DNA of 64,000 nucleotides. Origin: Eledone cirrhosa. Lineage: Eukaryota. The notes under the pieces were generated by a model. The model had not been told where the DNA came from, made no database searches, and worked only from the letters and a program-made list of their open reading frames with translations. The stretch's first letter is position 1, and every line of letters starts with the position of its first letter. Both the position numbers and the translations under genes were made by a program. The DNA lies in NCBI GenBank assembly GCA_964016885.1, contig OZ024747.1, positions 3,348,001 through 3,412,000 of the forward strand, given 5' to 3'. Shown one piece after another: positions 14,531 through 48,500 of this stretch.

Positions 14531-14556
<26 letters not shown>

Positions 14557-14563
<7 letters not shown>

Positions 14564-14767
14564 GTGAGGTTTTTTTTTTACAATATGAAAAATAACCGAG
14601 GTGTCCTACACGAGTGGAAGTATAAAGAAAAAGGGATGAAATCGAAAATGCAACTGAAGTCTTATTTTTTTTTTAAATATATATATTTATTTGGTTCCTT
14701 TACCGGTTTCGCAGTTCTTCTGCTTTTCAAAAGGTGAGTTGAGATGGAGGGTCTGTGGTTTTTCTCA
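14557..14767 (-). mobile_element. ~210-bp non-autonomous hammerhead-bearing element (copy 1) in (TA)n
   Basis: Near reverse complement of 16519-16724. TA runs on both sides, no ORF. Confidence 0.8.
14697..14734 (-). ncRNA. Minimal type-I hammerhead motif, U3-A8 core variant
   Basis: Minus strand reads CCTT-TTGAAAA-GCAG(AAGAA)CTGC-GAAA-CCGG-TA-AAGG. Perfect stems I and II, palindrome ACCGGT, GUA cleavage triplet. Confidence 0.72.
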
Positions 14768-15621
14768 TATATATGTTAAATGGCATTACCAACATGCAGC
14801 TAGAAACCTGACATGACCAAAACCAAACAGAAAACAGTGGAGATCAACCAGGGAGGGCTTCATCCAACAGGAGTTGAGAAGTCCCTGCATTAGATTATAT
14901 ATATATCTATATATATATGTGTGTGTGTTTCTCTCTTTGTATGTACATTTGCATGTATATATATATACAAAAAGTTATAATAAGAATTGCAGCTTTTTGT
15001 AAACTTTACAGGACAACATATATATATATATATATATACACACACATACATTTGCTTTATTGTTTATTATTTAGTGAAAATGTGAAACAAAATAAGTTAA
15101 TATGAATCTTTCAAAATATAAGAAAAATGGCTTTATAAATGTACATTAAAATATGAATTCAATTATAGAGTGAGGTGGGAAGAGGCAGAGAGTGAGAATT
15201 GGACAAAGAGAGGAATAGAGAGAAAAAGAGAGACAGAGAGAGTGAGAGAGAGTTAAGATAGCATTGTACATATCACAGATTATGTTTAGGGACTTGATTT
15301 TATTTTGCACCTGTCCATGAGTAAACACAAATGCACACACATGTATATGGACGCATTCAAGTTCACACTGTTGACTTGTGTACACTCATGTACAGCAGAA
15401 GTGATACAAGAAAGCTAGGAGTCTTGATTCTTATATATTCTAATATAGAATAACATTCATTCTTATGATTCCTTCCTGTTGTTAGCTTTCAAAACCATAT
15501 TAACAGTTTTAATTATTGCTCAGTGGAATGAGAGCAGTTTGCTTAATACAGGGTGTTTCCAAAAATTAGATGTCATTTCAGATGTAAATATCCCAGAACT
15601 ACAAACCCTAGTATGAGACTG

Positions 15622-15678
<57 letters not shown>

Positions 15679-16030
15679 CAGATCTAGCTGTCTAAACAGC
15701 CACAGCTCAGCCGTCAGGGTCCTGACTCTTTTCCTATTACCCACTCTACTACCCTGAGTATCGAGTATTCTGGTGCATTATGGTCCACCTGGTATCTTAC
15801 CATACCTTTTTACATATATATATATATCATCATCATCATTTAACGTCCATTTTCCACACTCACACAGAAGTGATTTTGGCTTGATTTCTATGACTGGATG
15901 ACCTTCCTAACACCAACAACATTTACAGTGTGTACTTTGTGCTTTTTGTCGTGACACCTACATGGCCACTTTACAGTGTGAACAATTCACTAGAGAAAAT
16001 TGTTAACTTTCCAGTTATGTATGTATATAT

Positions 16031-16360
16031 ATGGCTTAGTGGTTAGAGCATTGGCCCTGCAATCGAAAGGTTGTGAGTTCAATTTTCAGACCGGGCGATG
16101 TGTTGTTTCCTTGAGCAAGACACTTTATTTCACATTGCTCCAGTTTACTCAGCTGTAGAAATGAGATGATAGGGACTGGGGTCCATATCATTCCACTGCA
16201 AAGTGGTCGTGGAGGTGCCATGCCAAAAAGCACCCAGCACTCACTGTAAATGAGGTTGGTGTTAGGAAGGGCATCCAGCTGTAGAAATCAAGCCAGAATC
16301 AGTTCCTGTCCCACCCTTGATAAAAGGAAAAGCGGACGTAAAATGGTGATGCTGATGATG
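16031..16360 (+). mobile_element. SINE family C
   Basis: Homologous to 43071-43405. Confidence 0.85.
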
Positions 16361-16500
16361 ATATATATACATTTATATGTATATATATAATATACATTTA
16401 TATATATATTTATATGTATATATATATATATACATTTATATGTATATATATATATACATTTATATGTATATATATATATACATTTATATGTATATATATA

Positions 16501-16724
16501 TGAGAAAAACCACAGATGTGAGAAAAACCACAGACCCTCCATCTCAACTCTACTTTTGAAAAGCAGAAGAACTGCGAAACCGGTAAAGGAACCAAATAAA
16601 TATATATATTTTTTTAAAAATAAGACTCCAGTTGCATTTTGGATTTCATCTTTTTTCTTTATATTTCACTCGTGTAGGACACCTCGGTTATTTTTCATTC
16701 TGTAAAAAAAACCTCACTTTCTAA
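16501..16724 (+). mobile_element. ~210-bp non-autonomous hammerhead-bearing element (copy 2) in (TA)n
   Basis: Homologous to 14557-14767. The 5' 16-mer tgagaaaaaccacaga is duplicated (16501-16516, 16519-16534). TA-rich flanks. Confidence 0.8.
16552..16589 (+). ncRNA. Minimal type-I hammerhead motif, U3-A8 core variant (second copy)
   Basis: Reads ACTT-TTGAAAA-GCAG(AAGAA)CTGC-GAAA-CCGG-TA-AAGG. The core is identical to 14697-14734. Confidence 0.7.
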
Positions 16725-17073
16725 TATATATATATATATACATATATCATCATCATCATATATATATGTATATATATGTATATGTGTATATATATGTATA
16801 TATATATATGTATATGTATATGTATATATATGTATATGTATATATATATATGTATATATATGTATATGTATATATATATATGTATATATATGTATATGTA
16901 TATATATGTATATGTATATATATGTATATGTATATATATGTATATGTATATGTATATATGTATATATATGTATATGTATATATATATATGTATATGTATA
17001 TATATATGTATGTATATGTATATATATATGTATGTATATGTATGTATGTATATGTATATATGTATGTATATGT

Positions 17074-17107
<34 letters not shown>

Positions 17108-17387
17108 ATAAATCGATGTCATTTGCTCTATCAGCATTTCAAATATTTGTGAAATTGTGCTGCCATCTGTGAATGAGTCTTGTAAATGAAATTCCAATAA
17201 AAACAGAATTTTCTGCAGGCTGCTTTCACATTACTTCAACATTTCCACAACAATTTAGCAAGGTTGTTTTCAGTAATGTTATAATTTACCTAGTAACTCT
17301 TTATAATAGACACTACATTCTAATCCTTGGCCCCACACCACTACCATTGTCAATTCCATTAACATCCTTGTTATTTGTAGATATATT

Positions 17388-35549: not shown

Positions 35550-35815
35550 CGATATTAACAAATGGAAACTATATTTATAAAACCATATTTATTTCATTAT
35601 ACATATTTCAAGGATACCAAGTTAAATTATGGTATGCCTTCATCAGACAAAATACAATATATACCAGTTTTATAAATAAACATTGACGTACCCTTTCAAA
35701 ATGCGACCGTTAGTTTTTAATATCGTATATCTACTCCAAATACTTGTCGAGTGCTTTATATCAGTTATAAAATATTTACTTGTTGTATCCCAACAATTTA
35801 AATAGAACTTTTTGC
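35550..35815 (-). mobile_element. Short TA-flanked repeat carrying a hammerhead motif; an internally deleted copy lies at 42921-43022
   Basis: Both copies share cgatattaa...ggaaactatatttataaaaccatatttatttcatta and gttgta.cccaacaatttaaata, and both lie between TA runs. Confidence 0.65.
35591..35653 (-). ncRNA. Hammerhead-like motif in a short TA-flanked element
   Basis: Minus strand reads ATTTTGT-CTGATGA-AGGCATACC(12 nt)GGTATCCTT-GAAA-TATGTA-TA-ATGAAAT. Stem I has 7 pairs including G-U wobbles. Near-palindrome ATATGTAT. Confidence 0.55.
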
Positions 35816-43061: not shown

Positions 43062-43405
43062 TGGAGGCACATGGCTTAGTGGTTAGAGCATTGGGCTTGC
43101 AATCGAAAGGTTGTGAGTTCAATTCTCAGTCCGGGTGATGTGTTGTTTCCTTGAGCAAGACACTTTATTTCACATTGCTCCAGTTTACTCAGCTGTAGAA
43201 ATGAGATAATAGGGACTGGGGTCCCTATCATTCCACTGCAAAGTGGTCGTGGAGGTGCCACTGCAAAAAAGCACCCAGAACTCACTGTAAATGAGGTTGG
43301 TGTTAGGAAGGGCATCCAGCTGTAGAAATCAAGTCAGAATCAGTTCCCGTCCCACCCTTGCAAGCAGGGAAAAAGCGGACGTAAAATGAAATGATGATGA
43401 TGATA
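43062..43405 (+). mobile_element. tRNA-derived CORE-like SINE (family C) with a (GAT)n-tailed 3' module
   Basis: ggaggcacatggcttagtggttagagc...gagttcaattc head, tccttgagcaagacactt core, gttaggaagggcatccagc module. Near-identical to 16031-16360. Confidence 0.85.
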
Positions 43406-48164: not shown

Positions 48165-48500
48165 GAAGGTGCATGGTTTAGTGGTTACAGCATTGGGATT
48201 GTAAATGAGAGGCTATAAGTTCGATTCTTGGACGGGGTGATGTGTTGTGTCCTTGAGCAAGACACTTTATTTCACATTGCTCGCATTTACTCAGCTGTAG
48301 ATATGAGTAGCGACATTACTGGTGCCAAACTGTATCGGTCATTGCCTTTCCCTTGGACAACATTAGTGGCATAGAGAGAGGAGACCAGTATGCATGGGTG
48401 ACTGCTGGTCTTCCACAAATAAACCTTGCCCAGGTTTGTACCTCGGAAAGCAACATTTTAGGTGAAAAACCATAGTCATTAGTGACTGATGGATGGCTTT
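48165..48500 (+). mobile_element. SINE family C variant (different 3' half)
   Basis: Same tRNA head and gtgtccttgagcaagacactt core. Confidence 0.75.

Follow-up and report, generated by a model that had tools for sequence, protein, structure and literature searches.

Short hammerhead-bearing repeats in Eledone cirrhosa are probably pLTR fragments of an autonomous Neptune-type Penelope element

Two short pLTR copies between TA runs

The window, a 64,000-nt stretch of Eledone cirrhosa contig OZ024747.1, carries two short repeats on opposite strands, both at the places reported in a first-pass annotation and each flanked by TA runs. Their parts, with those of their flanks, are as follows.

14531..14557, no strand: (TA)n target run that borders the minus copy on its 3′ side
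14557..14767, minus: second short pLTR copy, younger subfamily with a 4-bp stem I (alignment to the plus copy)
14557-14620, minus: tail of the minus copy
14697..14734, minus: hammerhead motif of the minus copy, U3 at 14730, predicted cut between 14701 and 14700
16361..16501, no strand: TA-rich run 5′ of the plus copy
16500..16513, plus: additional 14 nt duplicating the 5′ end of the element, located where the TA run meets the plus copy (sequence)
16514..16724, plus: short pLTR copy of a Neptune-type PLE, family A, 3-bp stem I subfamily, from the putative transcription start to the end of the tail
16553..16588, plus: minimal type I hammerhead motif (descriptor run, comparison, co-folding)
16553-16555 with 16586-16588, plus: stem I, 3 bp
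16556-16562, plus: core UUGAAAA, with U3 at 16556 and A8 at 16561
16563-16575, plus: stem II, 4 bp
16576-16579, 16580-16583 and 16584-16585, plus: GAAA, CCGG and UA, predicted cut after 16585
16579-16584, plus: palindromic ACCGGU
16595..16600, plus: AATAAA, candidate polyadenylation signal, 9 nt 3′ of the predicted cut
16665..16724, plus: optional tail of ~60 nt, between both 3′ end points (copy alignments)
16724..17110, no strand: TA-rich run 3′ of the plus copy

Pairwise alignment of the two copies (14770-14557, minus strand, against 16516-16724, plus strand) showed that 196 of 214 bases were identical (92%, E 2e-81). The first-pass annotation had described diverged copies with differing flanks and had taken the shared U3-A8 core as covariation; the copies are in fact alike over their entire length, so that the shared core is by itself no evidence of covariation. 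The plus copy, previously placed from 16501, begins at 16514, and the 14-nt duplicate in front of it was likely produced by a template jump; comparable junctions were found at other loci. Since the two copies belong to different subfamilies and both are tailed, the minus copy is likely an independent insertion. No RT or endonuclease remnant of family A was detected within the 64-kb window, and both copies are likely inert. Another short repeat between TA runs lies between both pLTR copies (window 15676-15815, with 45 matches among the fetched loci), and tRNA-like SINE copies are located at 16031-16220, 43071-43260 and 48173-48307 (96% and 83% identical), the first of which contains a weak Rfam tRNA match at 16032-16089.

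The parent element

Longer copies of the repeat extend upstream into a 3′ UTR and a reading frame, and the 210-bp piece was recognized as the pLTR of a PLE encoding RT and GIY-YIG. The suggested link to Penelope elements is thereby confirmed, whereas the idea of a short non-autonomous family is not, because the short copies are pLTRs of an autonomous coding element and lack its upstream promoter-like motifs. The parent is ~4.7 kb in length and has the layout pLTR - ORF1 (400 aa) - ORF2 (RT, CX4CX2C linker, GIY-YIG) - 3′ UTR (~1.3 kb) - pLTR. The GIY-YIG domain was matched with an E value of 3.9e-6, above the Pfam cut-off, and RVT_1 with an E value of 1.2e-6 and 28.8 bits, just under the cut-off of 29.6. 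The protein searches returned 818 relatives, many of them with both the RT and GIY-YIG families. Among the close relatives, P0012, P0037, P0038 and P0061 are filed under bacterial symbiont names and are probably host DNA in those assemblies. The linker (CGRSNxGTC or CDRPNCGIC) conforms to the Neptune pattern CX2-5CxxC and precedes a C-terminal GIY-YIG with a long spacer. Judged from its sequence, the parent fits an EN+ PLE of Neptune type, a label given by comparing motifs by eye with the rows of Fig. S2 in the accessible part of PMC8557442 and not by a tree.

Both ORFs were open in 5 of the 10 long copies fetched, and three of these five carry two motifs 4.67-4.69 kb apart. The pLTRs stand in partial tandem (pLTR-ORF-pLTR) in copies that include L359-L361 and L109, the latter a copy of the sister family B. 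In many young copies the pLTR is followed by TATATA and then, ~26 nt on, by the ATG, with the motif ~165 nt upstream of that ATG. ORF1 and ORF2, the latter in the -1 frame, overlap at T TTT TTA, a site present in 30 of 30 loci, and 15 of the 19 loci that include the ATG have an ORF1 of 400-401 aa. The same overlap was seen in families A and B and in metagenome relatives (L031:4112-4199 on the minus strand, L109:2862-2928, L282-L316), and T TTT TTA was located within 12 nt of the start of the ORF2 match in 8 of 41 relatives on metagenome contigs. This arrangement likely reflects a programmed -1 frameshift; no strong downstream hairpin was predicted at the slip site of family B. A claim of novelty for the frameshift was dropped, as a frameshift-separated ORF1 is already listed for PLEs in the accessible text of PMC8557442.

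Head-to-head inverted copies are common, with an inverted 5′-truncated copy adjoining the 5′ end. The ~60-nt tail was present in 61 of 99 sampled copies and absent in 38, and the pLTR alignments cover the query from 1 to 206 with the tail or from 1 to 146 without it. Both of the resulting 3′ end points fall on TA; inverted partners end at ~16664, and loose ends at that point run into TA. PLE families are also often nested in or adjoining each other at TA runs.

State of the core across family A

The AT-rich genome (3.0 Gb, 1,796 contigs) was searched with the family A motif, in which positions 3, 7 and 8 were left free. The search yielded 11,659 exact matches, with 0 in the reversed control, and U3-A8 occupied the core in 100 of 100 among the matches listed. 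Other core states were rare, namely C3-A8 in 51 and U3-G8 in 22 of the 11,659 matches, and C3-G8 was found in 0. The lack of C3-G8 and the rarity of single changes indicate that U3-A8 is the state of the master elements rather than a product of decay; UUGAAAA is family-wide, and the possibility that the two window copies had decayed from CUGANGA fails. A 29-mer taken from downstream of the motif was commoner, with 14,614 genomic matches, so the exact motif counts are lower bounds. A pattern for the canonical ancestor (CTGANGA..GMAACCGGT) gave 131 genomic matches against 167 in the control. Two old, heavily mutated family-A-like copies have a C3-G8 core (L106:2849 and L107:2437, both on the minus strand), which fits chance double changes, though these copies may also be ancestral relics. 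The expectation that a CUGANGA-only search would overlook the motif proved correct, as more than 20,000 such motifs are missed in this one genome.

The hammerhead fold and its comparative support

When both strands of the window were searched with a hammerhead descriptor, the U3-A8 motif turned up in these two copies only, with U3 at 16556 (plus) and 14730 (minus). The same descriptor returned one canonical CUGAUGA motif in the window, at 35646 on the minus strand; it lies in a type I hammerhead with an 8-bp stem I (35600-35655, minus) that belongs to another repeat family with 36 matches among the fetched loci. All core positions of a minimal type I hammerhead are present in the U3-A8 motif, the U3-A8 pair replacing C3-G8 as the Watson-Crick 3-8 pair. 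Stem I is 3 bp long in the plus copy and 4 bp in the minus copy, and it is weak across families (2-5 bp). The monomer folds were little better than those of shuffled sequences (z -1.0 and -1.6), and no match up to E 10 was obtained with the Rfam hammerhead models, which may or may not cover minimal variants. The Rfam matches that did appear in the scan (TA-repeat miRNA models and a 19.8-bit MALAT1 match) were taken as chance. Since the z-scores and the Rfam result leave the window motifs weak when taken alone, the case for a hammerhead is built on comparison across families.

In an alignment of 11 motif rows, chosen with a pattern that forces the core and the first stem II pair and leaves the other pairs free, 90.7% of the cells were paired, against 22-38% in slid controls; three cells of one pair fall in gaps, and related rows inflate the shuffle control. 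Two-sided changes occurred in 6 of the 10 pairs, affecting 3 of the 4 pairs of stem I and as many of the 4 in stem II, and N7 was represented by all four bases. When two motifs were co-folded, the ACCGGU duplex was predicted in 6 of 6 rows, at -8.3 kcal/mol, with stem II formed in 5. A looser motif pattern gave 1,643 genomic matches, against 123 in the reversed control, and brought up more U3-A8 families. Between families A and B, 26 of 31 positions were identical in the 30 nt before the cut and ~50% after it; their four-fold sites are saturated (43 of 134 identical), and their proteins are 55% identical. By these comparisons the hammerhead fold is conserved across families. The first-pass annotation was thus right to see here a homologue of minimal type I hammerheads whose stem III is palindromic. 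Covariation is seen across sister families, in which the core is kept and stems I and II covary.

Sister families and the erosion of the core

Families D to I (L256-L266, L272-L275) have the U3-A8 core and the same palindromic helix III with other stems I and II; family D is tied to a related ORF that is ~50% identical. No catalytic position is lost in families A, D, E and F, which also have an allowed UH triplet. Family C (L206-L215, L267-L269), the parse of which is uncertain, combines U3-A8 with G13 and a non-palindromic helix III. Its motif is located ~280 nt upstream of an ORF of a different PLE type, Hydra-like by its motifs, and an independent origin of U3-A8 is possible in this family.

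Family B, the Neptune-type sister of family A, gave 11,267 exact matches, in which U3-A8 is accompanied by a fixed A13C change: GCAA replaces GAAA in 97 of 100 among the matches listed, and A13 is kept in 44 copies only. The family is young, with dispersed copies that are 98-100% identical, and one of them (L109:1398-6230, at G000:C3:169161000-169168849) is apparently intact: both of its frames are open, and it has two motifs at a distance of 4.8 kb. Its stem I consists of three A-U pairs, a competing hairpin is predicted, and the motif departs from the minimal hammerhead core at A13. Position 13 pairs with G8 in the ground-state fold; the accessible portions of two papers count A13 in the accepted hammerhead core (PMC3088659) and describe the G8:A13 pairing (PMC6257768). 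No paper on an A13C hammerhead was found in a search in which most subscription papers lay outside reach, and the supplements of PMC4209133 and PMC3088659 may list position-13 variants.

In relatives from other organisms, 6 of the 7 motifs detected have C3-G8, and U3-A8 is therefore likely derived here. The scan covered those 41 of 76 metagenome loci that reach near the ORF end, of which 34 had no motif outside the ORF, so that the ancestral state rests on 7 loci. Canonical C3-G8 minimal hammerheads also occur in the same genome (L032:3068 on the minus strand, L028:1156 and 1290, L022:2426), and one of these lies directly 3′ of a different PLE ORF.

A sharp 5′ boundary upstream of the predicted cut

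Relative to the predicted cut, 5′ ends were mapped for 99 copies selected with an anchor downstream of the motif; of the 14,614 in the genome, these are neighbouring ones within the first 28 Mb of contig C1, and the arms of an inverted insertion are not independent. Half of the ends (50) were located at -75..-61, of which 44 fell at -73..-67, and 30 lay further upstream, 7 at -60..-3, 4 at -2..+4 and 8 beyond. The four ends at -2..+4 slightly exceed the background (~1-2 expected) and may come from some cleaved templates. The predicted cut is spanned by 87 of the 99 copies, which implies that the templates of these copies were uncut or re-joined.

The upper 5′ edge is AGATG (window 16514), and in long copies TATAAAA and CCAAT are located 30 nt and 79 nt upstream of it, respectively. 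The same edge recurs in family B (15 of 43 copies), where CATAAAA precedes it by 32 nt. This arrangement suggests that AGATG is the transcription start; alternatively, the boundary could reflect strong pausing of RT, or RNA processing, at this point. A splice-site reading was dropped because a pyrimidine tract is absent. Since the promoter-like motifs lie upstream and outside the short copy, the short copies are promoterless, and uncut linear RNA is the simplest reading for copies that end at the start site. We therefore consider it probable that the repeats are short pLTR fragments of an autonomous ~4.7-kb Neptune-type PLE with a U3-A8 motif, likely made when RT copied the 5′ end of uncleaved mRNA into nicked (TA)n.

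Under this model, transcription would begin at AGATG, and RT, primed on nicked (TA)n, would start inside the RNA at either of the two TA-ending tail points and run off the RNA 5′ end, leaving promoterless copies of 150 and 210 nt; longer copies would call for a circle, a transcript that reads through, or a jump of RT between templates. In a full transcript, both motifs might pair by way of ACCGGU; they would then cut slowly, possibly aided by the protein of the element, and most insertions would not depend on this cutting. The model agrees with in vitro work on an anole PLE, in which, according to the accessible text, reverse transcription begins inside the RNA, insertion is normal with mutated ribozymes, and cleavage depends on the protein (PMC11167929). 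No paper describing start-site-bounded solo pLTRs was found in the searched literature, in which most subscription papers were outside reach.

Does the motif still cut?

Self-cutting of the U3-A8 motif is likely weak. Low activity is also suggested by a pairwise scan of a type III hammerhead, in which, as far as the accessible data go, the 3-8 pair was rescued only by the swap of C-G to G-C (PMC9901934). Minimal motifs are described as generally of low activity in the available sections of PMC4209133, and those of PMC8557442 call the role of PLE hammerheads unclear.

It is possible, though on balance unlikely, that the motif is an active ribozyme needed in the cycle of the element: dimers would cut, the unit would be circularised, and RT would copy the circle through the re-ligated junction to give long and tandem copies, with the short ones derived from uncut linear RNA. 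Such a cycle, for which a circle model has been proposed (PMC4209133, in its accessible part), would account for the retention of core, palindrome and stems across families with ~50-55% identical proteins, for intact copies with two motifs 4.7 kb apart, for the 4-bp stem I form in 10 of 10 long young copies fetched, and for the 30 of 99 copies that extend past the start site. Against it speak family B, which is young (11,267 matches, L109 frames open) although its motif has C13, a stem I of just three A-U pairs and a competing hairpin by prediction, and the anole PLE, whose insertion in vitro was unaffected by the ribozyme mutants (PMC11167929, as above).

Doubtful as well is the reading that the motif is derived from a hammerhead, no longer cuts in this lineage and has been retained in the 5′ UTR as a structure for dimerisation or protein binding. 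A stepwise erosion, from C3-G8 in 6 of the 7 relatives' motifs to U3-A8 in all local families and then to C13 in B and G13 in C, is in line with it, as are the 87 of 99 copies that span the cut. On the other side, families A, D, E and F retain all catalytic positions and an allowed UH triplet, and U3-A8 has been reported active in vitro in the accessible part of PMC3088659. We advance only tentatively the further suggestion that this genome preserves the loss of a catalytic hammerhead core from elements that themselves thrive, C3-G8 having given way to U3-A8 at the root of the local Neptune radiation and position 13 having then changed twice, to C13 in a young family of more than 11,000 copies and to G13 in an apparently unrelated PLE family. 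If true, this history, together with thousands of start-site-bounded copies from uncut RNA, would be an in vivo case for PLE hammerheads being dimerisation or protein-binding structures, or being rescued by protein, rather than free-standing nucleases, and families A, B and D would form a ready natural test series. A 2017 paper in RNA Biology reportedly deals with dimeric PLE hammerhead variants.

A short non-autonomous retrozyme-like element, transcribed and spreading as its own 210-nt unit, is very unlikely and largely refuted. Many copies are of equal length with sharp ends, and local duplications in arrays exist, as such an element would predict; against this, the unit corresponds to the pLTR of a coding element, from which no diagnostic sequence sets it apart, the short copy leaves out the promoter-like motifs, and the copy ends do not match the cut site. 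The search for tandem arrays proposed in the first-pass annotation found no head-to-tail 210-nt array in the window or in 30 loci, where neighbouring copies are head-to-head or 4.7 kb apart. Two features that define retrozymes are thus missing here, namely an ORF-independent non-coding unit and head-to-tail repeats of 150-450 bp. Finally, a chance hammerhead lookalike in an AT-rich repeat, for which the weak fold z-scores and the missing Rfam hammerhead match might speak, is scarcely credible and is refuted by the comparative data, which comprise the pLTR position in a PLE, the covarying stems, variable N7 and constant palindrome across families, and the 1,643 pattern matches against 123 in the reversed control.

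Comparison with known systems

The comparisons below follow the accessible parts of the cited papers. The U3-A8 core is not novel and is already on record in nature, where its covariation in natural hammerheads and activity in vitro were reported (PMC3088659), and in PLEs, with ~1,300 mostly single U3-A8 minimal motifs in Schistosoma mansoni (PMC4209133). A close likeness exists to the min-HHR found in pLTRs of metazoan PLEs, the U3-A8 variant of the Cercyon elements of that species included (Cervera and De la Pena 2014, PMC4209133); shared features are the pLTR location, U3-A8, the G10.1-C11.1 pair, a short stem I, a palindromic helix III, mostly single motifs from truncated elements, and close inverted pairs. 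Unlike these, the motif described here has a 4-bp stem II, no extra base between A9 and 10.1 and a 4-nt palindromic helix III insert, and it is carried by a Neptune-type element in a larger and more uniform family (more than 11,000 exact matches versus ~1,300 heterogeneous ones).

The parent resembles the Neptune-clade EN+ PLEs (Craig et al. 2021, PMC8557442) in its RT followed by a C-terminal GIY-YIG, the CX2-5CxxC linker and the CCHH motif, and also in partial tandems, an inverted 5′ copy, an optional tail and (TA)n bias. It differs from them in its tail of ~60 nt rather than 30-40, in its long 3′ UTR (~1.3 kb) and in that half of the sampled copies stop at one 5′ point. With PAc, the Poseidon element of Anolis carolinensis (Frangieh et al. 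2024, PMC11167929), it has in common two RT start points that set the tail, AT-rich targets, a hammerhead in the pLTR and, presumably, uncleaved RNA as the main template. PAc differs in its single ORF and in its C3-G8 core, which overlaps the ORF start, whereas the motif here precedes the ATG by ~165 nt. Metazoan non-LTR retrozymes (Cervera and De la Pena 2020, PMC7229834) are likewise short type I hammerhead repeats in animal genomes, but they are non-coding head-to-tail tandems with canonical hammerheads and expressed circles. The repeats of E. cirrhosa, by contrast, are fragments that derive from a coding element and lie dispersed, and a putative start site and the tail, not cut sites, form their limits.

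As the U3-A8 motif in PLEs is already published, the parts worth following are the start-site boundary and the A13C sister family. The value of the motif is practical: intact elements, dated copies in the tens of thousands, a sharp 5′ boundary that fits the uncleaved templates seen in vitro, and sister families with and without further core change are all present in this genome and together make the role of the PLE hammerhead directly testable.
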